From NCBI GenBank assembly GCA_964355085.1, contig CAYHBW010000004.1, positions 1 through 47,337 on the forward strand: 47,337 nucleotides of DNA, written 5' to 3'. Under the pieces are notes generated by a model. It was not told the DNA's origin. It saw nothing but the letters and a program-made list of their open reading frames with translations, and searched no databases. The stretch comes from an uncultured Candidatus Saccharibacteria bacterium (GTDB lineage Bacteria > Patescibacteriota > Minisyncoccia > UBA6257 > 02-FULL-45-10c). A program made the translations under genes and the position numbers. Below, piece after piece: positions 23,834-42,390 of this stretch (position 1 is the first letter of the stretch; the number at the start of each line of letters is the position of its first letter).

Positions 23834-23841
23834 TAATCTAG

Positions 23842-24215
23842 TGGAGATGGTGGGAGTTGAACCCACATCCGAAAATGTATCTGCCTCAAATCTACGCGCG
23901 TAGCTTGGTCTTGGTTTGTGAAAATGAGCTATAGATCAAGCAAAACGCATCATTTCCATTGTCAGTGAATTTCTCCGCAGTTAGTAGACTTCTGCTACGG
24001 AAGAGTCTGATTAATTACACCGAAGTTCGGCCTACCAGACATGAGCCGTTCGATGGTCCCGCGGCATATAGCGGCGGAACAAGCCAGTTATGCGAAAGCA
24101 AAATCTGGCATTCTGTTGGATAAGTTTGCACTTATTCAGTTTCCCAGTTTAACAAGTTATGGAAGCTTGGCGCGCATTGAAACAGAAAAAATTCCCGTCA
24201 AAGCCCGGCATCCCC
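23842..24215 (-). ncRNA. ssrA: tmRNA (SsrA)
   Basis: 5' GGGGATGCCGGGCTTTGACGGGA..., 3' GGGTTCAACTCCCACCATCTCCA tRNA-like end. Candidate tag ORF from GCA at 24129 to TAA at 24090-24088. Adjacent to smpB. Confidence 0.88.
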
Positions 24216-25729: not shown

Positions 25730-27529
25730 ATGATCGCGGACATAAAAAAACTCATAAAACAGACCGCTTCGGCGGAAATAGACATTGAAGTCAGCGCTTC
25801 GGACAAGCCGGAGTTCGGTCATTATTCCACTAATGCGGCTTTTAAATTGGCGCCGATAGTCAGGAAATCTCCTCTTGAAATCGCTAAGGACTTAAGTCAA
25901 AAATTGGGCGAAGAAAAGATTTTTTCAAAAGTCGAAGCAGTTGCGCCCGGATTCATCAATTTTTGGATTTCATCGGCGGCTTTGCAAGGGAGTGTTGCAG
26001 AAATTTTAAAAGAAAATAAAAATTTCGGAAAGTTGAGCGGAGCGAAATCCGCCTCTGGCGGATTAAAAGTTAACCTAGAGTTCGTTTCCGCTAATCCGAC
26101 CGGGCCATTGACCATGGCTAACGGCCGAGGGGGATTTTACGGAACTGCGCTTGCGAATGTTCTGGAAAAAACCGGTCATAAAGTTACACGGGAATATTAC
26201 GTGAATGACGCCGGGAATCAGGTCCGGAAGTTGGCATTAAGTATATTGGCAGAAAAAGGATTCGTGCCTAAGTTTTCCGAGCATTATCAGGGTGGTTATA
26301 TTAAAGAATGGGCAATGTTAGTTAAATTATCAAAAGAATTAGAAAAAAAATTAAAGTTAAATTATAAATTAGGTAAGTCAGAATTTGAAAAAGGAGAAAA
26401 ATATCAAGATGAAAATGCAGAAATTGCACGTTTCTATAATTCGATAGTTAAGCCAATTTATAGAAATCATCTCAAGGATCTCGAATCTATCGGTAAAAAA
26501 ACTACACTGATTGCATTAAAAAGTATAAAAAAATCTCTTCAAAAAGCGGGGATCAGGCATGACAATTGGTTTTCCGAGGATGCGAATCTTCATAAAAAAG
26601 GAGAGCTAAAGAAAGCTTTAGAATTTTTAAAAAATCGAAAAGTAGTTGAAGAAAAAGACGGAGCAACGTGGCTAAAACACCATGAGGCGAAGCCTCAGGA
26701 GTTCGCCCGACCGAATTTACACGGCAAATTCAGTTTAGGGTTGGGCGAAGGGGTTCTTATAAAGTCTGACGGCTTGCCTACTTATTTTCTGGCCGATCTT
26801 GCTTATCACTACAACAAGCTGATAAAGCGGAAATTCGATCTCGCCATCGATATCTGGGGCGCGGATCATCATGGCTATGCGCAAAGGATGAAAAAAGGCG
26901 TGGAAGCGCTCGGATTGAATTCGGAAAGATTGAAAATTCTTATCACGCAGCTGGTCCGGTTGGTCAGCGGCGGGAAAGAAGTCCGCATGTCCAAGCGGAA
27001 AGGGGAATTCATCACCATGGACGATCTTTTGGAAGAAGTCGGGGCGGATGCGGCCAAGTTTTTCTTTTTGATGCATTCATTGGATACGCATATGGATTTT
27101 GATATGGATCTGGCGAAAGAGAAATCCAATAAGAATCCAGTATTCTATGCGCAATATGCGCTCGTAAGATGCAGTAACATCTTACGGAAGTCTAAAGCCC
27201 CGACCAAAGTCGGGGAGCCGACTCTGGTCGGCTTTAAAAATTTAAAATTAGAGTTTTTGACTTCCGAGTCGGAGGTCAGATTGATGCTAGAATTGATGAA
27301 ATTCCCTGATCTGATTACGCAGACAGCGGAAGATTATCAGGTCCATCATCTGACAAAATATGCCGGCGATGTCGCCCGGGCTTTGCACAATTTTTATGAA
27401 AAAGAGAGGGTTGTCGGGCTGGAAGATAAAAAACTTGAGCGGGCCCGATTGGCGCTGGTTTCCGCGACAAAGATTGTTTTGGAAAATCTGTTCGATATTT
27501 TAGGAATCTCAAAACCAAAGAAAATGTAA
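25730..27529 (+). CDS. argS: arginine--tRNA ligase
   Basis: 599 aa. SANPTGPLTMANGRG (HIGH region), HHGY, MSKRKG, C-terminal DALR anticodon-binding region ending in M. Confidence 0.95.
   Translation: MIADIKKLIKQTASAEIDIEVSASDKPEFGHYSTNAAFKLAPIVRKSPLEIAKDLSQKLGEEKIFSKVEAVAPGFINFWISSAALQGSVAEILKENKNFGKLSGAKSASGGLKVNLEFVSANPTGPLTMANGRGGFYGTALANVLEKTGHKVTREYYVNDAGNQVRKLALSILAEKGFVPKFSEHYQGGYIKEWAMLVKLSKELEKKLKLNYKLGKSEFEKGEKYQDENAEIARFYNSIVKPIYRNHLKDLESIGKKTTLIALKSIKKSLQKAGIRHDNWFSEDANLHKKGELKKALEFLKNRKVVEEKDGATWLKHHEAKPQEFARPNLHGKFSLGLGEGVLIKSDGLPTYFLADLAYHYNKLIKRKFDLAIDIWGADHHGYAQRMKKGVEALGLNSERLKILITQLVRLVSGGKEVRMSKRKGEFITMDDLLEEVGADAAKFFFLMHSLDTHMDFDMDLAKEKSNKNPVFYAQYALVRCSNILRKSKAPTKVGEPTLVGFKNLKLEFLTSESEVRLMLELMKFPDLITQTAEDYQVHHLTKYAGDVARALHNFYEKERVVGLEDKKLERARLALVSATKIVLENLFDILGISKPKKM
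27194..27234. repeat. 41-nt double-hairpin palindromic element inside argS (copy 1)
   Basis: CCCCGAC-CAAA-GTCGGGG (27198-27215) and AGCCGAC-TCTG-GTCGGCT (27216-27233). 36/41 identical to 31744-31784. Confidence 0.8.
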
Positions 27530-27551
27530 GATTCTTATCTTGTCAGAATTT

Positions 27552-27584
27552 TACCCGATTACGACGGGTATTGCTTTACTTTTT
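27552..27584 (+). terminator. probable terminator after argS
   Basis: TACCCG-ATTACGA-CGGGTA followed by a T-rich tract. Confidence 0.5.
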
Positions 27585-27622
27585 ATCTTCTATTTGTTTT
27601 AATCATTAGCGGTTCTTAGAAT

Positions 27623-28009
27623 ATGAATATAGGTAATGACATGGCCGACACGGTTCGCGGAGTTACGGCGGAAATTGAGAATTCCCTTATTTCAACGCAG
27701 GGCACTTCACAGCAGGAGACGCAGAGACGCTTAAGCGAAGCTGTTTCCGTCCTTCTGGGGTTTTGGTCTCACAGGAGAACTGTTTCCTGGATGCTTAAAA
27801 AGAATTCCGCATTGCGAAACGAAGCCCCGATAGACCTTGTCGCTTCTGCGTATGCCGCGAAAGATCTTATGAGTGCAATCAGGGCGATAAAACAAAAGCA
27901 TCTTGCGAGAAAAAATAGACTCGCAAGATTACGGCGCTTGCTTCGGACTCCGTCTGTCCTGGAGTATGGGGATTCGTGCGGCGTCGGTATTCCGGTCGAA
28001 CTGTTGTAA
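27623..28009 (+). CDS. hypothetical protein (weak resemblance to DUF2384 antitoxin-type domain)
   Basis: 128 aa. The segment W.LKKNSALRNEAPIDLV.S...A.DL...I..I is reminiscent of Xre/MbcA/ParS toxin-binding domains. Weak call. Confidence 0.4.
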   Translation: MNIGNDMADTVRGVTAEIENSLISTQGTSQQETQRRLSEAVSVLLGFWSHRRTVSWMLKKNSALRNEAPIDLVASAYAAKDLMSAIRAIKQKHLARKNRLARLRRLLRTPSVLEYGDSCGVGIPVELL

Positions 28010-28029
28010 CCGCCTGATGGCGGTTTTTT
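28009..28029 (+). terminator. rho-independent terminator
   Basis: ACCGCC-TGAT-GGCGGT followed by TTTTT. Confidence 0.7.
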
Positions 28030-28099
28030 AATTTTCAGATTTGAAAAAATAAAAATATCAGTGTATTCTTTTTGAAGAACTTATCAGCGCGGAGACTCA

Positions 28100-28519
28100 T
28101 TGGGGGATTTGAAAAAGATTTCCGTCGGATTGATTTTCACATACGTCGCCTACCTTCTGATCTGCCACTCTTCTTTTTATGCCGTCTGTGAAATATTGTA
28201 TGTCGATAAGGCATTTCATATCGCCGGCGGATATCTCATCGCCGCGCTTGCATATCGTCTTTCCGGATCAAGTAATCCATTGATATTATTCAGCGCCGTT
28301 ATTGCAATGGGCGTCGCTTGGGAATTTTTGGAGGTTTTCTTTCTGAATCCTTGGACTTTCCCCGCTCTTTCCGAAATCGGGCGGGCATTCGTCTCTTACG
28401 GGGATATCGCAGCGGATGTAGCCGGTTTTTTTCTGTATATGATATCGGGTAGAGAAAAGATTAATCATGCGCCTGCTTATATTCCCGGCGCACCTGATGA
28501 CCGCAATCGCCTTATTTAA
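28100..28519 (+). CDS. hypothetical membrane protein
   Basis: 139 aa, four hydrophobic helices. TTG start in the track, so the start is uncertain. Confidence 0.45.
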   Translation: MGDLKKISVGLIFTYVAYLLICHSSFYAVCEILYVDKAFHIAGGYLIAALAYRLSGSSNPLILFSAVIAMGVAWEFLEVFFLNPWTFPALSEIGRAFVSYGDIAADVAGFFLYMISGREKINHAPAYIPGAPDDRNRLI

Positions 28520-28610
28520 GGCGATTTTTGTTTATTTTTCACTCTTGCATTGTCGTATCTTGGGGTGATATATTCTCTGTAGTCATTTGCTAAATCAATT
28601 CGAGGTTGCC

Positions 28611-28907
28611 ATGTTGCTGATTCCACGTGATACGGCGCGTAGAGATCATTATGTGAAACACAAAGTGCGTTTTTCAAGATTACAGATTTACATAGCCCAT
28701 AGATTGGCGAGAAGCGGTTTAAGGGAGATATTGAAGGAACGAAAACCAAAAGGGATCGCCGCTCTTTGTAAGGAAATCAGGCTATTATCGCATTATATTC
28801 ATTTATTGAAAAAATCCGAAGGATATTACAAATATCTACGCTCAATACACAAGCATTCCGATTACGAAAGACATTTGAAGGAAAGAACTAATCGCCGCTC
28901 CCGATGA
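28611..28907 (+). CDS. hypothetical basic protein
   Basis: ATG at 28611 (track start TTG 28587). Arg/Lys/His-rich. The terminator hairpin overlaps its 3' end. Confidence 0.4.
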   Translation: MLLIPRDTARRDHYVKHKVRFSRLQIYIAHRLARSGLREILKERKPKGIAALCKEIRLLSHYIHLLKKSEGYYKYLRSIHKHSDYERHLKERTNRRSR

Positions 28908-28917
28908 GCGGTTTTTT
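28895..28917 (+). terminator. rho-independent terminator
   Basis: CCGCTC-CCGAT-GAGCGG followed by TTTTTT. Confidence 0.65.
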
Positions 28918-28919
28918 GT

Positions 28920-28948
28920 TTGAAAATGAACGATTTTTCGCTTAATAT
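28920..28948 (+). promoter_or_regulatory. promoter TTGAAA-17-TAATAT for the ileS leader
   Basis: TTGAAA 28920-28925, 17-nt spacer, TAATAT 28943-28948. Confidence 0.5.
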
Positions 28949-28957
28949 ATAAGAATA

Positions 28958-29099
28958 TGCCAGGTAGTAGATCTGCGGCTAGAATCTCATTTATCCGCGT
29001 TTACTATATGGAATTTAAGTAAAATAGTAATTGTAATTATAAATAGATAATCAATAAATTGAGATTCTGCGGATAAACACCGCAGGCTCACTACATGGT
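28958..29099 (+). promoter_or_regulatory. structured 5' leader of ileS, copy B of a two-copy element
   Basis: Aligns with the reverse complement of 22016-22160. Helices 28964-28978/29080-29094 and 28981-28989/29060-29068. Alternative hairpin 29067-29072/29080-29085. Ends at ATG 29100. Confidence 0.7.
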
Positions 29100-32000
29100 A
29101 TGCTTAGAGGCCTTAAGGAATTCAAATTGCCGGAAATAGAGGAGAGAGTGCTCAAATTCTGGAAAGAAAACAGGATTTTTGAGAAGTCTTTGAAGCTTCG
29201 CGAGAATGCGAAGCCCTTCCGATTTTTTGAAGGTCCGCCGACTGCTAACGGCCGTCCCGGAATTCACCATGTTCTTGGTCGGGCATTTAAAGATGTCATT
29301 CCGCGCTATAAGACAATGCAGGGATATTTGGTCAATCGAAAAGCCGGCTGGGATACTCATGGTTTGCCGGTGGAAATTGAAGTTGAAAAAGAACTCGGCC
29401 TGAAAAATAAACAGGAAATCGAGAAATTCGGAATCGCGGAATTCAATGAAAAAGCCAAATCTTCCGTCTGGAGATATCAGGAAGAATGGGAAAAGCTGAC
29501 TGACCGTATCGGATTCTGGTTGGATATGAAAAATCCGTATGTCACCTATAAGCCGGATTACGTGGAAAGTCTTTGGTGGGTTTTGAAGCAGATTGCAGAC
29601 AGGGATCTTCTCGCTCAGTCATTTAAGATTGTTCCTTATTGCCCTCGCTGTCAGACTCCGCTTTCCAGTCATGAAATGGGACAGCCGGGAGTTTATAAAA
29701 AAGTTAAAGATCCATCCGTATACGTAAAGTTCACCCTTCGACAAGCTAAGGGTAAAAAAAATAAAGCAAAAGAATACCTCTTGGTCTGGACCACCACTCC
29801 GTGGACTTTGCCGTCCAATGTGGCTGTCGCAGTCAATCCGGAATTAAGCTATACGAAATATAAAGTCGGAAAAGATTTTGTCTGGTCATATAATCCTCCG
29901 CCTTCGCCAGAGGCTACGGCGGACAAGTCCTCCGAAAATATTGAGGTGGTGGAAAAGATTTCCGGGAAGAAAATGATCGGTTGGGAATATGAGCCGATGT
30001 TCAAGGTAAAAGGCCCGTGGCTGAAAAACAAGAAGTTTTTTAAAGTTTACGGCGCCGGTTTTGTATCCACTACGGACGGAACAGGATTGGTTCATATTGC
30101 TCCGGCTTTTGGCGAGGATGATATGCAGCTTATTAAAAAAGAGCAGAAAGAATTGGTCGGACAGATCCCAATCACTATTGATGCGCGTGGCATAGTTCAG
30201 GCAGGACTGCCGGGCGCAGGGAGATTTGCCAAGCAGGCGGATAAAGATATCATCGCTCATCTTTTGGATAAAAAAATACTGCTTAAATATGAAGAAATAG
30301 AGCACGATTATCCGTTTTGTTGGAGATGCGGAACGCCTATTTTATACTTCTCCCGCTTTTCCTGGTTCATAGAAATGAGCGGGCTTCGCGACCAGCTTCT
30401 GAAAAATAATGAAAAGATAAATTGGGTTCCGGATCACATTAAAGAGGGGAGATTCGGTGAGTGGCTTCGTGAAATAAAAGATTGGGCGATTTCTCGTGAT
30501 CGCTATTGGGGAACGCCGCTACCGATTTGGCGATGTGGGGATTGTGAGGCGACTAAGGTCGTCGGAAGCTTAAAAGAATTGGACGATAGCCGTTTTTCGG
30601 AAAATAATTTTTATTTTCTCCGTCATGGAGAGTCAGATCATAATTTGACTGATATTATAGCAGCCGGGCCGGAGCGCGGAAAAAATATTTCCAAGCTGAC
30701 CAAGAAAGGCCTTGCGCAAGCGGAAGAAGCCGGAAAAAATATAAAGAAAATGCTCGGGAAAAATAAACTCGATTTCATTTTCGCTTCGCCTTATCAGCGT
30801 ACAAAGCAGACGGCAAAGGCGGTCGCTAAGCAGACGAAAGCGAAATTGATTTTTGATAAAAGGTTGGTTGAAATCGATGCGGGAATTTTTAATTGGAGAG
30901 TGGTCGGAGAGTTCCATAAATTTTTTGAGAATTCTTTGGAGCGCTTCACTAAATCTCCGGCTGGTGGAGAAAATCTGAATGATGTTAAAAAAAGGATGTT
31001 CGGCGCAATTCTGGATATCAATTCCAAATATTCCGGTAAAAATATTCTCATTGTCAGCCATGGCGATCCACTTTGGGTTTTGGAAGGAGCAATGAAGGGA
31101 TTGGATAACGAAGAAATTTTGAATTTGGATTACATTAAAACTGACGGCAAGCCGCGGAAAGTTGAGTTGCATAATTGGCCGTATAATATGAATTGTGAGC
31201 TCGATATTCATCGCCCGTATGTCGATGATCTGCATCTTAAGTGCGGGAAGTGTGATGGCAAAATGACCCGCGTGAAGGAGGTCGCCGATTCTTGGTTTGA
31301 TTCCGGAGCAATGCCGTTTGCGCAATTTCATTATCCATTCGCGCAAGATCTGAAAAATCCTTTGGATATGAATTCGATTGAAAAAACGATTGAATTTCCG
31401 GCTGATTACATCAGCGAGGGAATTGATCAGACCAGGGGATGGTTTTATACTCTTCTAGCCGTGGCCACTGCTTTGGGCTTGGAAAATCCTTACAAAAACG
31501 TGATTACGCTTGGATTAGTTTTAGATAAAAACGGCCAAAAGATGTCCAAGTCAAAGGGAAACGTGGTCAGTCCGTGGGATATGATTCAGAAATACGGCTC
31601 TGATGTTGTCCGCTGGTATTACTACACCATCAATCCGCCGTCTGAATCCAAAAAATTTGACGAGCTGGATCTCGGCAAGATGCTCCGAAAGTTCATAATG
31701 ATAATTTATAACTCTTTCGTTTTTCTGGAGACTTATGGGGATAAAAGCCCCGACCATAGTCGGGGAGTCGACTTGGGTCGACTTCAGAATGTTTTAGATA
31801 GATGGATCTCAGCTAGATTGAATCAGACAATCGAGCAGGCGACGGAAGGATTGGAAAAATACGATGTCGGTTCCGCCGGAAAGGCGCTGGAATCTTTTGC
31901 AGACGATCTTTCCCGATGGTATATCCGCCGTTCCCGTCCGCGCCTGCAGAAGCCGGATGATATGAAGGATTATGCGTCCGCCTCCGCCACTTTGCGGTTC

Positions 32001-32642
32001 TGCCTTTCTGAATTGAGCCGGATGATGGCCCCGTTCACGCCTTTTTTTGCCGATGCTCTTTATCTTTCAGTTTCCGCCGTCAAGGAATCCGTCCATCTTG
32101 AGGATTGGCCGGAAGCGGACAAGAAAGCGGTTGATTTTTCTTTACTCGAAAAAATGGAAGAAGTCCGAAGATTATCCAGCTTGGCTCTGGCGATCCGCGC
32201 TGAAAAAGGAATGAAGGTCAGGCAACCGCTTCAGGCGTTGGAAATAAAATCCAAGGCAATTGATGTTCGCGATGAAGAGCTTTTGGCGATTCTTCGCGAT
32301 GAAGTGAATGTAAAGGAAGTCCGATGGAATTATGAAATGAAAGAAGAATTGGCTTTTGATCTTGTAATAACGCCTGAACTCAAAGAAGAGGGTATTCTCC
32401 GGGAAGTTGTTCGCATGGTTCAAGGACTTCGCCATGATGCAGGTTATGTTCCTTCAGATGCCATCGAGCTTAGGATTGAGGGCCCTAAAGAGCTGGAAAA
32501 CGCCTTAAATGCGCATATGGCGCGTCTTAAGCGGGATGTGGGGGCGAAGTCGGTTGAGCTCAAAAAGAGCGATAAATATGACGCTGAATTGAGCACTAAA
32601 TTTGAAGACCAGCCGCTTTGGGTCGGGGTAAGAAAAATCTGA
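29100..32642 (+). CDS. ileS: isoleucine--tRNA ligase carrying an inserted histidine phosphatase domain
   Basis: 1180 aa. PTANGRPGIHH (HIGH), WTTTPWTLP editing domain, WAISRDRYWGTPLPIW, KMSKSKGN, C-terminal anticodon-binding region. Confidence 0.95.
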   Translation: MLRGLKEFKLPEIEERVLKFWKENRIFEKSLKLRENAKPFRFFEGPPTANGRPGIHHVLGRAFKDVIPRYKTMQGYLVNRKAGWDTHGLPVEIEVEKELGLKNKQEIEKFGIAEFNEKAKSSVWRYQEEWEKLTDRIGFWLDMKNPYVTYKPDYVESLWWVLKQIADRDLLAQSFKIVPYCPRCQTPLSSHEMGQPGVYKKVKDPSVYVKFTLRQAKGKKNKAKEYLLVWTTTPWTLPSNVAVAVNPELSYTKYKVGKDFVWSYNPPPSPEATADKSSENIEVVEKISGKKMIGWEYEPMFKVKGPWLKNKKFFKVYGAGFVSTTDGTGLVHIAPAFGEDDMQLIKKEQKELVGQIPITIDARGIVQAGLPGAGRFAKQADKDIIAHLLDKKILLKYEEIEHDYPFCWRCGTPILYFSRFSWFIEMSGLRDQLLKNNEKINWVPDHIKEGRFGEWLREIKDWAISRDRYWGTPLPIWRCGDCEATKVVGSLKELDDSRFSENNFYFLRHGESDHNLTDIIAAGPERGKNISKLTKKGLAQAEEAGKNIKKMLGKNKLDFIFASPYQRTKQTAKAVAKQTKAKLIFDKRLVEIDAGIFNWRVVGEFHKFFENSLERFTKSPAGGENLNDVKKRMFGAILDINSKYSGKNILIVSHGDPLWVLEGAMKGLDNEEILNLDYIKTDGKPRKVELHNWPYNMNCELDIHRPYVDDLHLKCGKCDGKMTRVKEVADSWFDSGAMPFAQFHYPFAQDLKNPLDMNSIEKTIEFPADYISEGIDQTRGWFYTLLAVATALGLENPYKNVITLGLVLDKNGQKMSKSKGNVVSPWDMIQKYGSDVVRWYYYTINPPSESKKFDELDLGKMLRKFIMIIYNSFVFLETYGDKSPDHSRGVDLGRLQNVLDRWISARLNQTIEQATEGLEKYDVGSAGKALESFADDLSRWYIRRSRPRLQKPDDMKDYASASATLRFCLSELSRMMAPFTPFFADALYLSVSAVKESVHLEDWPEADKKAVDFSLLEKMEEVRRLSSLALAIRAEKGMKVRQPLQALEIKSKAIDVRDEELLAILRDEVNVKEVRWNYEMKEELAFDLVITPELKEEGILREVVRMVQGLRHDAGYVPSDAIELRIEGPKELENALNAHMARLKRDVGAKSVELKKSDKYDAELSTKFEDQPLWVGVRKI
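30585..31200 (+). other. histidine phosphatase (PGAM-like) domain inserted in the IleRS catalytic core
   Basis: FYFLRHGESDHN (RHG), SPYQRTKQTA, EIDAGIF, IVSHGDPLW. It sits between ...VVGSLKELD and DIHRPYVDD, which are only about 13 aa apart in the Thermus IleRS sequence as I recall it. Confidence 0.75.
31744..31784. repeat. 41-nt double-hairpin palindromic element inside ileS (copy 2)
   Basis: CCCCGAC-CATA-GTCGGGG (31748-31765) and AGTCGAC-TTGG-GTCGACT (31766-31783). Confidence 0.8.
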
Positions 32643-32702: not shown

Positions 32703-33671
32703 TTATAGCAATCCGAGTTTTTTCTTAATTTCTTTCATTTTTGCGAAAGCGAGTTTTTTTGCTTTTTTGTCCCCAGCACTCAGAATAGTTTTAAGTTTCA
32801 AGTCAGAAGTTTTAAGTTCGCGGAACGGAGTAAGGGCTTTGACCGCAACGTCGGCAAGGTCGGATTTGAATTGTCCGTAACCTTTGCCGGCATATTTCTT
32901 TTCCAGATCAGATACGGATTCTCCAGTCAGGGCTTCATAGATGAGAAGGAGATTGGAAACGCCGGTTTTATTTTGGAGATCAAATTTCACTTCAGATCCG
33001 GAGTCCGTTACTGCGCGCTTTATCTTTGATTCGATATCTTTCGGAGAATCGTCCAGGAAAAGACATCCTTCCGGTTGAGACTTAGACATCTTTTTCATCG
33101 GATCGTTCAAGCTCATTACGCGCGGAGTTTTTGTCATAAGCGCCTGCGGCTCTGCAAATGTATTACCAAAACGATTATTGAATTTGCGGGCAAGAGTCCG
33201 CGCTAGTTCCAAGTGTTGAAGCTGGTCATCTCCGACTGGGACAGTTTTCGCGTCATACAGTAGTATATCCGCAGTCATGAGGAGCGGGTAGGTAAGTAAG
33301 CCCACATTCACTGATTCCTGCAGTGCTGACTTATCTTTGTATTGCGTCATTCTTTCCAGTTCTCCGATAGGAGCAATGGTATTGAATATCCAGGCGAGTT
33401 CTGTTGATTCAGGAATATGCGATTGGATAAACACAGAAGATTTTTTCGGATCAATGCCGGCGGCAAGATAGGCCTTGGCAACGCCAAGGACTTCTTCTGA
33501 TTTTTTAGCCGGATCAAAATCAATCGTCAGAGAGTGATAGTCCGCGATGAAAAACAGGCACTGATACTTTCCGGAATTCTGAAGTTCCACAAAGTTTTTT
33601 AGAGCGCCTAAATAATTACCGAGATGTAATCGGCCTGTCGGCTGGATTCCGCTGATTAAGATTGGCTTCAT
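32703..33671 (-). CDS. trpS: tryptophan--tRNA ligase
   Basis: 322 aa. GIQPTGRLHLGNYLG (HIGH) and KMSKS. Confidence 0.95.
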   Translation of the reverse strand: MKPILISGIQPTGRLHLGNYLGALKNFVELQNSGKYQCLFFIADYHSLTIDFDPAKKSEEVLGVAKAYLAAGIDPKKSSVFIQSHIPESTELAWIFNTIAPIGELERMTQYKDKSALQESVNVGLLTYPLLMTADILLYDAKTVPVGDDQLQHLELARTLARKFNNRFGNTFAEPQALMTKTPRVMSLNDPMKKMSKSQPEGCLFLDDSPKDIESKIKRAVTDSGSEVKFDLQNKTGVSNLLLIYEALTGESVSDLEKKYAGKGYGQFKSDLADVAVKALTPFRELKTSDLKLKTILSAGDKKAKKLAFAKMKEIKKKLGLL

Positions 33672-33748: not shown

Positions 33749-35527
33749 CTACAGCTCTATCAGCACCGGAAGAACCATTGGTCTTCGCTTAGTCTTATTA
33801 TACAAGAGTTGGCCGATCTGGTCTCTGATGAGTCCCTTCACGTAGTCCGGTTCCGGCTGGTTGTTGCGCGGGATTTTTCCGAGGACATTTTTCAGTTTCA
33901 GGCGTATATCATCAAGCATCTGCTTATTTTCTTTGAGATAGATGAATCCGCGGGAAATGATGTCCGGAGTTTTCAGCATCCGGCCAGTCCGGCGGTCCAA
34001 AGTGGCGATGATGACAATCATGCCTTCTTCAGCAAGAAGCAGGCGGTCGCGCAAAACAACTTCCTGGACATCTCCGACTCCAAGTCCGTCAACCATGACG
34101 TAGTCAGTCGGGATTCTTTCTTCGGTTACTGTGAAGGATTCTGCGGTAAGGTTCGCAACCTGGCCGTTATCCATAAGAATCGCATTTTCTTTCGGCATTC
34201 CGATTTCCTGCGCGACTTTTGCAGCCGCCGATCTCTTGAAGTAATAACCGTGAATCGGAACCACATATTTCGGTTTGACTAATTTCAAGACAACACGGAG
34301 GTCGTCTTTAAGGCAGTGTCCGCTGGAGTGGATATCCAAAAGTTTGGAGTTGTAGACTTCATCAACTTGACGGGCGATATTATCCTGAAGCGCCTGAACG
34401 CTGCGTTCATTTCCAGGAACAACGGAAGAGGAGAAGATGACTGTGTCAGATCTTTTCAGACGGAGAACTTTGTGTTCGCCGTTGGTGATTTTAGTCAGTC
34501 CGGCATTTGGCTCACCTTGTCCTCCGGTGGAAAGAATCATTATCTTGTCATCTTTGTGTCGGCTGACTTCTTCAACTGCGATGACATTTTCTTTCTTGAA
34601 TTTCATATACCCGAGATTTTTTGCAATCTCGACGTTGTCTTTCATGGAGCGGCCGTTGATGGCGACTTTTTTCCCGAGTTTTTCCGCGATCTTGATGATT
34701 TCCGCAAGACGGGTCAACAGGGAAGAAAAAGTTGCGACGATGATGCGTCCTTTGGCGTTCTTGAAGAGCATTTCCAGATTTTTTTCCACGATTTTTTCCG
34801 GAACAGATTGTCCTTCGATGTCGGCGTTCGTGCTGTCCAGGAGAAGGGTGTGGATTCCGGCTTTCCCGAGTTTTTCGAATATTTCCAGCCCTTCCGGATT
34901 TCCTTCTATATCGCGTTCAACGCGGAAGTCTCCGAAAGTAGCCATTTTTCCGACCGGAGTTTCCAGGATGAATCCGATGGAATCCGGAATGGTGTGGTCG
35001 ATGGAGAAGAAATCTCCGGTGAAGTGCGTTGATATCCTCAAGCGGTCACCGTCATTGACGACGATGATTTTCGGCTTCGGGACATTCGGAAATTCCTGGA
35101 ATCTTTTTTCAACCAGCGCTTTGGTGAGGGCGGCGGTATAGATGACAGGATTGCCGAGCTTTTCAATCAGGTACGGAAGGGCGTGGATGTGATCGTAGTG
35201 GCCGTGGGTCAAAACAATCGCCTTTACGTTTTTCTTTTTCGGCTCGATGTAGCTGATGTTCGGAATTATGTAGTCGACTCCCGGAGTTTCCTCTTCGGGG
35301 AATTGGATGCCGACATCGATGACGACGATTTCATCCTTGTATTCGAAGAACGAGCAGTTTTGCCCGATCTGTTCCATTCCTCCGACAGGAACGAACCGCA
35401 GCGGAACCAGACCGGATTTTTCCGGTTGTTCCGTATGCGTTTTTTGCTCCCTGTGATGGGTGGCAGTTTCTTTATGTTCTTTTTTATGTGGCGCGAAAGT
35501 TCTTTTCGGCGCGCTAACTCTAATCAT
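33749..35527 (-). CDS. rnj: ribonuclease J
   Basis: Metallo-beta-lactamase HGHYDH, beta-CASP and a C-terminal domain. I placed the start at ATG 35527 because the longer track ORF (to 35704) runs through tRNA-Leu. Confidence 0.88.
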   Translation of the reverse strand: MIRVSAPKRTFAPHKKEHKETATHHREQKTHTEQPEKSGLVPLRFVPVGGMEQIGQNCSFFEYKDEIVVIDVGIQFPEEETPGVDYIIPNISYIEPKKKNVKAIVLTHGHYDHIHALPYLIEKLGNPVIYTAALTKALVEKRFQEFPNVPKPKIIVVNDGDRLRISTHFTGDFFSIDHTIPDSIGFILETPVGKMATFGDFRVERDIEGNPEGLEIFEKLGKAGIHTLLLDSTNADIEGQSVPEKIVEKNLEMLFKNAKGRIIVATFSSLLTRLAEIIKIAEKLGKKVAINGRSMKDNVEIAKNLGYMKFKKENVIAVEEVSRHKDDKIMILSTGGQGEPNAGLTKITNGEHKVLRLKRSDTVIFSSSVVPGNERSVQALQDNIARQVDEVYNSKLLDIHSSGHCLKDDLRVVLKLVKPKYVVPIHGYYFKRSAAAKVAQEIGMPKENAILMDNGQVANLTAESFTVTEERIPTDYVMVDGLGVGDVQEVVLRDRLLLAEEGMIVIIATLDRRTGRMLKTPDIISRGFIYLKENKQMLDDIRLKLKNVLGKIPRNNQPEPDYVKGLIRDQIGQLLYNKTKRRPMVLPVLIEL

Positions 35528-35598
35528 ATTTGTTTTGTTATTTTTAATTATTAATTTTTTTATTTTATTTTTTTTCCTATTAATTTGCCCCGTATTCC

Positions 35599-35617
35599 AT
35601 ACAAAGTGCCGAAGTGA
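35599..35617. repeat. left arm of a 19-bp inverted repeat flanking tRNA-Leu
   Basis: ATACAAAGTGCCGAAGTGA. The reverse complement of 35839-35857 is ATACAAAGTGCCGCAGTGA (18/19). Confidence 0.7.
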
Positions 35618-35627
35618 GGACTTTCTG

Positions 35628-35710
35628 TGCCCCCGAGAGGATTTGAACCTCCACGACCTTGCGGTCACACGCACCTGAAGCGTGCGCGTCTGCCGTTTCG
35701 CCACAGGGGC
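35628..35710 (-). tRNA. tRNA-Leu (anticodon CAG), long variable arm
   Basis: Acceptor GCCCCTG/CGGGGGC, anticodon stem CACGC/GCGTG with loop TTCAGGT, 16-nt variable arm, T-arm GGAGG-TTCAAAT-CCTCT. Confidence 0.9.
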
Positions 35711-40826: not shown

Positions 40827-40841
40827 ATTCGGCGGATTTTT
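40812..40841. terminator. bidirectional terminator
   Basis: CCGCCG-TTAAATT-CGGCGG flanked by A5 and T5. Confidence 0.65.
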
Positions 40842-42390
40842 ATTGCAGCAGCTTCAGCAGGCTCTGACCTGTTATTTCTGCGGGTTTCGGTATGTCCAAT
40901 AATTCCAGAACTGTCGGGGCGATGTCGGAAAGGATCCCGGAAATTTCACCTTCAGCGAGATTTATTTCCGCCTGGTTTTTCGGACGAGTGAATTCATTGC
41001 CGACCAGATAAATCGGAACAGGGGACGGGTCGTGCGTATTTGTATATTCTCCTGTGCGCGGATTCATCATTGATTCGGCATTTCCGTGATCGGCTGTGAT
41101 TATCAGCGCGGCATCATTTTCCAGCGCGGCCCTTACCAGCGCTCCGACGGATTCATCCACTGTTTTCACTGCGATTTTAGTGGCTTCGTAATTGCCGGTG
41201 TGGGCTACCATGTCGCCGTTTGCGAAATTGACCAGGATGAAATCGAAGGATTTTTCCCGGATCGCCTGGGTGACGCGCGCGGTTATTTCCAGCGCCTGCA
41301 TTTTCGGTTTTTCGGCGTGGCTGGAAACTTTTTCAGACGGCACAAGAATGCGGAACTCGTTTTCAAAGGGCTTTTCCCTGTATCCGTTGAAAAAATAAGT
41401 GACGTGGGCGTATTTTTCCGTTTCGGCGATGCGAAGCTGGGTTTTACCGTTTTCCGCAATAATCCGCCCGAGCGGCATTTCCACCGATTCGGACGGGAAA
41501 GCGATCGGCGCCTTGAAAATATCCAGATATTTGGTGAAGGTGGCGATATAGAGATTAGGAAGGGGCTTGGTCGGGAATTCCGAGAATTCAGGATCAATAA
41601 AGGCGCCGGCGATCTGGCGGATTCCGTCTTCCCGGAAATCGAAGAAAATTATCGCATCATTGCTTTCCACGCAGTTTCCCGGATTTATCGTGTGCGGCTC
41701 GATATGCTGATCTGTGAGATTCCTGGAATAAGCTTCCTGTGCGGTTTCTTCCGGAGATTTTCCGATTGGTCCGGTTCCGGTAATCGCTTCATAGGCGAGC
41801 CGGGTGCGCTCCCAGTGATTATCGCGCTCCAGTCCGTAGAATCTTCCGGCGATGCTTCCGATTGTCCATCCGTCGGGAATATCCAGGCGAAGTTTCCCGA
41901 GGATCTCCGTAAATGATTTCGGTCCGCTGTCTTTTCCGTCCGTAAACAGATGAAGATTTATTTTCGACACCCCGTTCTGTTTGGAGAGGTTTATCAGGGC
42001 GATCAGGTGTTCGTAAGAGGCATGGATGTTTCCCTGCGTGAGAAGTCCGATAAGATTCAGCGCGCTGCTGTTATTTTTTACGTGCGCAAAAGCATCCAGC
42101 AGAGCCTGATTTTTTGAGAAACTTCCGTCCCGGATTGCCAAAGTGATGCGGGGATAGTGCTGATAGAGGATTTTCCCGGCGCCGATGGTCAGGTGGCCGA
42201 CTTCGCTGTTGCCTTCTTCATTCCAGGGGAGGCCGATGGAAATGCTGGAGGCCTGAAGCGAGCCCATCAGAAAATTTTCCTTTATGTAATCCAGATTCGG
42301 AGTTCCCTGGATATGAATGGGGTTCGTGTCGTTCTTCGCGCCGACGCCCCAGCCATCCAAAATTGCTAGAATTACTTGACGCTTGGTCAT
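40840..42390 (-). CDS. gpmI: 2,3-bisphosphoglycerate-independent phosphoglycerate mutase
   Basis: 516 aa. VILAILDGWG, NSEVGHLTIGAG, ITADHGNAE. Confidence 0.93.
   Translation of the reverse strand: MTKRQVILAILDGWGVGAKNDTNPIHIQGTPNLDYIKENFLMGSLQASSISIGLPWNEEGNSEVGHLTIGAGKILYQHYPRITLAIRDGSFSKNQALLDAFAHVKNNSSALNLIGLLTQGNIHASYEHLIALINLSKQNGVSKINLHLFTDGKDSGPKSFTEILGKLRLDIPDGWTIGSIAGRFYGLERDNHWERTRLAYEAITGTGPIGKSPEETAQEAYSRNLTDQHIEPHTINPGNCVESNDAIIFFDFREDGIRQIAGAFIDPEFSEFPTKPLPNLYIATFTKYLDIFKAPIAFPSESVEMPLGRIIAENGKTQLRIAETEKYAHVTYFFNGYREKPFENEFRILVPSEKVSSHAEKPKMQALEITARVTQAIREKSFDFILVNFANGDMVAHTGNYEATKIAVKTVDESVGALVRAALENDAALIITADHGNAESMMNPRTGEYTNTHDPSPVPIYLVGNEFTRPKNQAEINLAEGEISGILSDIAPTVLELLDIPKPAEITGQSLLKLLQ

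Follow-up and report, generated by a model that had tools for sequence, protein, structure and literature searches.

A histidine phosphatase domain nested in the CP3 zinc knuckle of a type-2 isoleucyl-tRNA synthetase from Parcubacteria

Introduction

The ileS gene described here lies on contig CAYHBW010000004.1 (assembly GCA_964355085.1), which is deposited under the name of an uncultured Candidatus Saccharibacteria bacterium. The stretch that was analysed, positions 1 to 47,337, is referred to as the window. The product of the gene is a type-2 isoleucyl-tRNA synthetase (IleRS2) of a Parcubacteria/Paceibacteria bacterium of the candidate phyla radiation (CPR), and a complete small histidine phosphatase domain of the PhoE/PspA kind sits nested in its CP3 zinc-knuckle loop. 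This nested architecture is clade-wide in CPR/Parcubacteria, and it unites in a single polypeptide what two genes encode in sister lineages. Judged from sequence, the domain is probably an active phosphatase that is functionally coupled to IleRS.

Few enzymes have been studied as thoroughly as aminoacyl-tRNA synthetases, and the catalytic add-ons known from their bacterial representatives amount essentially to editing domains. In the case described here, an entire bacterial class keeps a second hydrolase of unrelated chemistry tied to IleRS, nested in the protein in some genomes and encoded in the same operon in others. That the link persists through repeated rearrangement and gene replacement implies that the IleRS reaction, or tRNA-Ile, has a requirement in these ultra-small symbiotic bacteria that has gone unrecognised.

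The ileS product is a type-2 IleRS

An earlier reading of the window, made from its sequence only, had described ileS as one uninterrupted open reading frame of 1180 aa, and this is borne out. The parts of the gene that belong to the synthetase are as follows.

29100..32642, + strand: ileS, type-2 IleRS with nested phosphatase, one 1180-aa open reading frame without interruption
29100..30584, + strand: N-terminal part of IleRS, aa 1-495, comprising the first Rossmann half, CP core, CP1 editing domain, CP2 and first CP3 half (alignment with 1ILE; domain names from PMC7191050)
29259..29270, + strand: class I signature in the swapped GXHH form, G-I-H-H, aa 54-57 (sequence and alignment)
31200..32642, + strand: C-terminal part of IleRS, comprising the second CP3 half, second Rossmann half, anticodon-binding domain PF08264 and type-2 C-terminal domain DUF5915 (Pfam and alignment)
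31539..31553, + strand: KMSKS loop, aa 814-818 (sequence)

When the ileS protein is compared with Pfam, tRNA-synt_1 (PF00133, E = 4e-116) is matched in two stretches, one on either side of His_Phos_1, and Anticodon_1 (PF08264) and DUF5915 cover aa 900-1046 and 1046-1179 respectively. The protein scores 891.9 bits against the NCBIfam ileS model TIGR00392, whose cut-off is 621.4, which identifies it as an isoleucyl-tRNA synthetase. The presence of DUF5915 and the top structure matches, 1ILE and 8C8W (both IleRS2), assign it to type 2; IleRS1 structures score lower, at about 310-330 bits. The NCBIfam models for MupA and MupB reach 756-777 bits, under their exception cut-offs, and the model for IleRS with a GNAT domain (NF040702) reaches 275.7 bits against an exception cut-off of 1999. 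Homology to the IleRS2 enzymes of Thermus thermophilus (1ILE) and Priestia megaterium (8C8V) extends over the full length (782 and 781 bits; Foldseek E = 1e-87, TMt 0.81).

The sequence-only reading had also regarded the IleRS motifs, among them HIGH, as intact. This is correct for the editing domain, the CxxC pairs and the KMSKS loop. Specifically, aa 199-405 align to the isolated IleRS editing-domain structures 1WK8 and 1UE0, the editing-domain motif TTTPWTLP is present, and CxxC pairs occur at 181/184, 407/410, 479/482 and 715/718. The canonical HIGH motif is not there; its place is taken by G-I-H-H, and it is this natural swapped form together with KMSKS that marks the protein as class I. 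The GXHH swap of HxGH is natural and functional in some type-2 IleRS, and is tied to mupirocin hyper-resistance (PMC10485003). Among 120 homologues of the window IleRS the consensus at the signature is P-G-I-H-H, so that the variant is apparently clade-wide. The window enzyme thus resembles IleRS2 in its editing domain, KMSKS loop, zinc CxxC pairs, DUF5915 and GXHH variant, and differs from 1ILE and 8C8V in carrying a 205-aa enzymatic domain in place of the CP3 zinc-knuckle loop of about 10 residues.

The insert occupies the CP3 zinc knuckle

The features that define the insert and its junctions are listed below.

30585..31199, + strand: 205-aa insert, aa 496-700 (alignment with 1ILE)
30609..31127, + strand: His_Phos_1 (PF00300) core, aa 504-676 (Pfam; fold supported by predicted models)
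30534..30545, + strand: first CxxC of the CP3 zinc knuckle, C479/C482, which aligns with the first CxxC (C-Q-A-C) of Thermus IleRS
31242..31253, + strand: second CxxC of the CP3 zinc knuckle, C715/C718 (sequence and homologue conservation)
31173..31205, + strand: C-terminal linker N-W-P-Y-N-x-x-x-E-L-D, aa 692-702, present in embedded forms only (alignment; pLDDT 94-95 in the full-length model)

In the alignment with Thermus IleRS, aa 5-495 of the window protein correspond to 1ILE residues 5-477 and aa 701-1037 to residues 488-820, leaving about 10 Thermus residues opposite the 205 of the window protein. The flanks had been described as lying about a dozen residues apart in Thermus, in agreement with this alignment. 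The insert had been placed at 30585-31200; its start and its length of about 205 aa hold, and its true end is one base earlier, at 31199. On either side of the insert lies one CxxC half of a zinc knuckle, and both halves align with the Thermus Cys pairs around the same loop. This region is the CP3 subdomain, which bears a zinc motif in Thermus IleRS and whose topology differs from one IleRS lineage to another (PMC7191050, describing a Candida IleRS structure). Given this variability, the insertion site is a variable surface module within the Rossmann fold. The domain is therefore internal and no terminal fusion, as had been stated, but it does not interrupt the catalytic core proper. In the solved IleRS structures, compared by alignment and Foldseek, nothing was found at this CP3 site.

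His_Phos_1 (PF00300) is matched with E = 7.2e-31 on the full protein (107.8 bits; gathering threshold 21.7) and with E = 2.3e-32 on the excised insert (112.7 bits), so that Pfam supports both domains, PF00300 as well as PF00133, that the sequence-only reading had proposed. All four of the histidine phosphatase motifs that it listed were located in the insert: FYFLRHGESDHN at aa 504-515, SPYQRTKQTA at 563-572, EIDAGIF at 591-597 and IVSHGDPLW at 651-659. By its sequence the insert is a bona fide member of branch 1 of the histidine phosphatase superfamily that falls outside every characterised subfamily.

Catalytic residues and predicted structure

To describe conservation, 213 embedded regions extracted from all retrieved proteins were used. 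The predicted catalytic residues are given here with their state in these copies.

30621..30629, + strand: RHG motif, R508, H509 (predicted phospho-accepting nucleophile) and G510; R and H are 100% conserved
30798..30800, + strand: R567, second Arg of the phosphate pocket, 100% conserved
30870..30872, + strand: E591, predicted general acid, 93% E and 6% D
31059..31061, + strand: H654, second catalytic His (SHGD), 100% conserved

E624 is likewise 100% conserved, and the figures for R632, G595 and N515 are 99%, 95% and 80%. The complete catalytic core of branch 1 is therefore present, with the RHG histidine, two arginines, the second histidine and the acidic donor. Across 120 full-length homologues, the mean identity to the window protein is 0.54-0.56 in the insert, compared with 0.59 in the editing domain, 0.54 in the anticodon-binding domain and 0.50 in the C-terminal domain; the insert is thus conserved to the same degree as the synthetase domains. 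The nested architecture is under purifying selection.

An AlphaFold2 model of the full-length protein, built on a 120-sequence alignment, has a mean predicted local distance difference test score (pLDDT) of 91.5 and a predicted template modelling score of 0.86, and the insert and both linkers reach pLDDT 94-97. Modelled alone, the insert reaches pLDDT 89.8, and its terminal residues fall to 46-75. This loss suggests that the ends of the insert are packed against IleRS. In Foldseek searches the insert-only model matches small phosphatases of the histidine phosphatase superfamily, namely PspA (4IJ5/4IJ6), PhoE (1H2E), GpgP (4QIH/6S2Q) and HFP of the riboflavin pathway (9MMH), as well as dPGMs, with template modelling (TM) scores of 0.69-0.77, and so has the alpha/beta fold typical of this superfamily. 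Covariation was computed by mutual information with average product correction (MI/APC) over 186 non-redundant embedded sequences, and the two junction residues, 495 and 691, form the top covarying pair of the 330,891 residue pairs (z = 11.8). In the predicted models, the phosphatase domain appears to be rigidly docked on CP3.

The sequence-only reading had considered the insert to be a probably active phosphatase. This view is supported by the profile matches, the catalytic conservation in the 213 copies, the confident AlphaFold2 model and the clade-wide presence of the domain, all of which suggest that it is probably a working phosphohydrolase, which would proceed through a phospho-histidine. 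H509 would accept the phosphoryl group, which R508, R567 and H654 would hold, and E591 would protonate the leaving group.

Distribution of the nested architecture

With the full-length protein as query, PF00300 and PF00133 occur together in each of the 120 best clusters at 90% identity (54-100% identity to the query, 1113-1219 aa), which stem from NCBI, JGI, ENA and Logan assemblies. The carriers that bear a name are Parcubacteria/Patescibacteria, namely Harrisonbacteria, Zambryskibacteria, Liptonbacteria, Minisyncoccota and Paceibacterota, and the nested proteins are usually called 'class I tRNA ligase family protein' at NCBI. A HMMER search with the insert and its 20-aa flanks, run over 50%-identity representatives, found 88 representatives at E < 1e-30, and approximately 100 of the top 150 span flank, insert and flank in one stretch. 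When one genome per GTDB species was scanned, at least 533 genomes had a relative. Eighty of these GTDB species loci were classified, and the same insert was found in 60 of them. A survey of CPR orthologues, which had been put forward as a check on the architecture, thus finds it widespread. As the loci were ranked by their similarity to an embedded query, the ratio of embedded to split forms is skewed towards the embedded ones.

Among the loci L008-L087, many of the metagenome-assembled genomes that carry the module are titled 'uncultured Candidatus Saccharibacteria bacterium', and their IleRS cluster with those of genomes named as Parcubacteria. These titles are probably generic labels for Patescibacteria and give no ground for placing the module in Saccharibacteria proper. 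In one retrieved IleRS (P0206), the phosphatase insert is accompanied by an IS200-like Y1 transposase domain within CP1 and by a GNAT domain at the C-terminus; this protein may be a chimera or the product of a degraded gene.

An artefact, whether through chimeric assembly, an unnoticed frameshift or the insertion of an intein-like element, could be suspected from two observations. The GC content of the insert (40.3%) is somewhat lower than that of the remainder of ileS and of the window (45.7% in both), a modest gap that fits the Lys/Asn-rich composition of the insert. In addition, two related loci with the same architecture at 40-50% identity are fragmentary, L001 through frameshifts and L002 through an N-gap. 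At L001 (4375-7104) the embedded-type ileS has several frameshifts, two of which compensate each other and flank the CP3 knuckle and RHG motif; these could be long-read errors or a sign of pseudogenisation. Misassembly, frameshift and chimera are nevertheless ruled out for the window by the continuous open reading frame and by the agreement of hundreds of independent assemblies from the four sources named above. An intein or mobile insertion is ruled out as well, since Pfam gives no Hint, intein or LAGLIDADG endonuclease match and the boundaries of the insert equal those of the free-standing enzyme; the junctions are, moreover, conserved and covarying. We therefore regard the probability of an artefact as close to nil.

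A split-gene form and its evolution

The nearest free-standing relatives of the insert are proteins of about 190 aa with 35-47% identity to it, and their domain boundaries are exactly those of the insert. In three independent genomes, the gene for such a phosphatase lies directly upstream of, and on the same strand as, an insert-less type-2 ileS (959-987 aa); in one of these arrangements (L005) the two genes overlap by 8 nt. Among the 80 classified loci, the 60 embedded forms are accompanied by 15 in which the phosphatase gene is directly upstream of ileS (gap 11-122 nt), three in which it is one gene away upstream and two in which the genes are unlinked. The CP3 loop measures 8-16 aa in split forms versus 192-212 aa in embedded forms, which add a conserved C-terminal linker of about 12 aa (N-x-P-Y-N-x-x-G-E-L-D). 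Local gene order is shared as well: the order at L003 is ArgRS, phosphatase, IleRS, and ArgRS lies upstream of the embedded IleRS in both the window and L002. This split/embedded relation, of the Rosetta-stone type, points to a selected functional partnership, and the split-gene form is the strongest evidence of a functional link between phosphatase and IleRS. From this we infer that the phosphatase is an obligate partner of IleRS.

In neighbour-joining trees, split-form and embedded loci are intermixed, and each of the 60 bootstrap replicates of the IleRS tree shows at least six state changes; as these are distance trees of a limited sample, this number is provisional. The trees do not support one common origin of the embedded form, and several interconversions between the two forms appear to have taken place. 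The divergence of IleRS and that of the phosphatase are weakly correlated (r = 0.35). For example, the split loci L071 and L041 have phosphatases that are 76% identical and IleRS that are 46% identical, whereas the IleRS nearest to that of L071 is the embedded enzyme of L042 (69%), with an insert that shares only 47% identity with the phosphatase of L071. At least one change from embedded to split thus looks as if a foreign free-standing copy had been gained and the insert then lost. The robust point is that phosphatase and ileS stay linked even though their arrangement changes and phosphatases are exchanged horizontally. More distant free-standing paralogues (E about 1e-10) occur in unrelated contexts and are not linked to ileS, which indicates that the linkage is specific to the close subfamily.

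The insert is not a known mutase or phosphatase subfamily member

Scores of the insert against NCBIfam and related subfamily models are far below the respective cut-offs. For dPGM, dPGM_arch gives 79.9 (cut-off 225), TIGR01258 gives 41.5 (81.7) and the PRK dPGM models give 23-46 (305-421), and the GpmB equivalog model is also far under its cut-off. The PspA phosphoserine phosphatase model NF045917 reaches 74.5 (350), though PspA is the closest solved fold, and the models for the CobC alpha-ribazole phosphatase (TIGR03162) and SixA (TIGR00249) reach 67.1 (162.9) and 32.7 (74.5). The window encodes a phosphoglycerate mutase of its own, which is of the cofactor-independent type (iPGM), in contrast to the cofactor-dependent dPGM:

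40840-42390, - strand: iPGM (iPGM_N and Metalloenzyme domains; E = 5e-68)

This dedicated enzyme is independent of the insert and makes a glycolytic mutase role unnecessary. A mutase or a metabolic moonlighting function, which the sequence-only reading had entertained, is consequently unlikely, and a glycolytic dPGM activity was rejected as the main role on the strength of the sub-threshold models together with iPGM.

Substrate and rival functions

The other proteins and genes with which relatives of the insert are joined bear on the choice of substrate. Proteins P0242 and P0297, represented in at least three assemblies with contigs of up to 114 kb, consist of an N-terminal His_Phos_1, PUA_2 and ATP-sulfurylase. 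The phosphatase stands where the nearest Paceibacteria relatives have an adenosine-5′-phosphosulphate (APS) kinase domain, which looks like a kinase-to-phosphatase domain swap. His_Phos_1 is also found at the C-terminus of Sua5/TsaC (P0268) and at the C-terminus of ArgRS (P0273), each in a single cluster, and the phosphatases of the fusion proteins score 107-120 bits to the insert. In a context without IleRS (L088, 953-3350), the gene for an AMP-binding adenylating enzyme is followed after 11 nt by a more distant His_Phos_1 paralogue; a second His_Phos_1 gene and a second AMP-binding gene are nearby.

AMP transfer from ATP is common to IleRS, ArgRS, ATP sulfurylase and TsaC, and inorganic pyrophosphate (PPi), which all four release, is the sole product that they share. 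PPi hydrolysis was for this reason ranked as the leading substrate hypothesis, and we tentatively consider the PPi released in the amino-acid activation step as the best single candidate, a possibility that we hold with clear reservation. Local hydrolysis of PPi to two phosphates would pull Ile-AMP formation forward and suppress pyrophosphorolysis; the terminal phosphoryl group would pass to H509, with E591 as the proton donor to the leaving phosphate. The same logic of product removal could extend to the other PPi-releasing adenylate-forming enzymes that are fused to relatives of the phosphatase. An analogy, and only that, is offered by ATP sulfurylase-APS kinase of the PAPSS-like type, where a helper domain pulls unfavourable adenylate formation by removing a product. 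There the helper is a kinase or a family I pyrophosphatase, unlike the histidine phosphatase described here; fusions of ATP sulfurylase to inorganic pyrophosphatase were reportedly noted in some eukaryotic algae by Patron et al. in 2008. The ileS protein has no Pfam match to the inorganic pyrophosphatase families (PF00719, family II DHH/DHHA2 and membrane H+-PPase), and the proposal concerns how the domain works, not the family to which it belongs. Hydrolysis of phosphoanhydrides occurs elsewhere in the histidine phosphatase superfamily, according to a review (PMC13573052).

Several points weigh against PPi hydrolysis, or against close coupling to IleRS more generally. All 20 aminoacyl-tRNA synthetases release PPi, and its removal alone leaves the preference for IleRS unexplained. 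Fusions to proteins other than IleRS are rare (3 of 294 retrieved proteins), and the one with ArgRS may be a by-product of the gene order ArgRS-phosphatase-IleRS. We are not aware of any branch-1 histidine phosphatase that is established as an inorganic pyrophosphatase. Sequence alone gives no substrate specificity, and the insert is well under every NCBIfam equivalog cut-off. Covariation between phosphatase and IleRS is weak and phylogenetic-looking (best z = 6.9, rank 46), with no convincing interface.

The phosphatase might act instead on the acceptor end of tRNA as an adenosine 3′(2′)-phosphate phosphatase, which would strip a 3′- or 2′-phosphate, or a (pyro)phosphate added by a toxin or defence system, from A76 of tRNA-Ile before charging. 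It would then be a repair or licensing site, the third catalytic site on the synthetase, and would couple repair of the tRNA end to aminoacylation. Most of the partners do handle tRNA (IleRS and ArgRS directly, Sua5/TsaC in the t6A pathway), the predicted rigid docking on IleRS would suit such a role, and a shared specificity for adenosine 3′-phosphate is conceivable, given that the replaced APS kinase binds 3′-phospho-adenosine nucleotides. However, no branch-1 histidine phosphatase that works on RNA ends is known to us, the structural neighbours of the insert are all small-molecule phosphatases or mutases, there is no reason for tRNA-Ile alone to need repair, and the RNA-repair genes RtcB, Pnkp and Hen1 are not conserved beside the locus in the neighbourhoods examined. 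We consider this function unlikely and, tentatively, place PPi hydrolysis above it. An ordinary small-molecule phosphatase, acting on a sugar phosphate, phosphoserine or AMP, is a further candidate that we judge improbable. Mechanistically unrelated to IleRS, it would be kept with ileS only for co-expression or stability in a reduced genome and would have become nested through neutral rearrangement. Its closest matches in sequence and structure are indeed generic enzymes of the PhoE, PspA, CobC and GpgP types, its distant paralogues lie in unrelated contexts, and CP3 is structurally variable and tolerates insertions. Nevertheless, 78 of the 80 loci keep the physical link to ileS while IleRS diverges down to about 35-45% identity, and the link outlasts both repeated split/embedded changes and horizontal replacement of the phosphatase gene, a pattern that would hardly be expected unless the pairing were under selection. 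The linkers by which the domain is docked are also conserved, and iPGM leaves no need for a glycolytic activity.

The superfamily includes the protein phosphatases SixA, PGAM5 and Sts-1, and the insert matches SixA weakly. It could accordingly be imagined as a regulatory module that dephosphorylates IleRS or a translation factor, for instance to counter a kinase toxin of the HipA/Doc type, or that senses a phosphorylated metabolite and acts allosterically. The SixA score is far too low for membership, no kinase is conserved in the neighbourhoods examined, and fusion to ATP sulfurylase or Sua5 is at odds with a module of this kind, which we regard as very improbable.

Comparison with known systems

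The insert shares its fold with PhoE of B. stearothermophilus (1H2E) and PspA of Hydrogenobacter (4IJ5/4IJ6) at TM scores of 0.69-0.75, and like these enzymes it has the RHG, Arg, Glu and His set within about 190 aa and does not have the C-terminal tail of dPGM. It differs from them in being 22-27% identical in sequence and nested in, or operonic with, IleRS. A second catalytic module in or on IleRS is known from the CP1 editing domain and from the 'ileS_w_GNAT' family (NF040702). CP1 is universal and hydrolyses mischarged tRNA, whereas a histidine phosphatase in CP3 is another module at another site. The RNase H/acid phosphatases of the Rv2228c type (NF005567) resemble the nested enzyme in that a CobC/PhoE-like His_Phos_1 domain is joined to a nucleic-acid enzyme, and this model is the third-best NCBIfam match of the insert (74 bits versus a cut-off of 326). 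In these proteins, however, the phosphatase is a terminal fusion to RNase HI, and no aminoacyl-tRNA synthetase is involved.

Full-text literature searches found no description of a phosphatase within IleRS. Neither a paper of 2023 about the motifs of IleRS2 nor a preprint of 2026 about IleRS domain evolution mentions a phosphatase, CPR enzymes or an insertion in CP3. The earlier statement that no described IleRS of this architecture was known agrees with these searches. Hundreds of database proteins carry both Pfam domains, so that the architecture is implicitly catalogued but uncharacterised. The split-operon equivalent and the repeated interconversion of split and embedded forms are new here.

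If PPi is the substrate, the domain would represent a new pyrophosphatase family, the first on the histidine-phosphatase fold, with product removal built into an aminoacyl-tRNA synthetase. If tRNA is the substrate, the domain would exert tRNA quality control of a new type. Each of the two forms, split and embedded, offers a natural control for the other, and CP3 is an insertion-tolerant site for the engineering of IleRS.

Genomic neighbourhood

Three further features of the window lie near ileS.

23839-24215, - strand: tmRNA, tag peptide ANLSNRMPDFAFA
25730-27529, + strand: ArgRS
32703-33671, - strand: TrpRS

ArgRS, IleRS and TrpRS form a cluster of three class I aminoacyl-tRNA synthetase genes. 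The order of SmpB or tmRNA, then ArgRS, then IleRS recurs at L002 and L003. Between ArgRS and IleRS (27530-29099) the window has three small open reading frames with no function assigned (27623-28009, 28100-28519 and 28587-28907), the first of which has a weak, sub-threshold match to the C-terminal domain of Xre/MbcA/ParS antitoxins; in split-form genomes, this interval holds the free-standing phosphatase gene. Further downstream, tRNA-Leu(CAG) (35627-35710, - strand) overlaps the 5′ end of the RNase J open reading frame (33749-35704, - strand), which suggests that the true start of RNase J is probably an internal Met codon downstream of the listed GTG.

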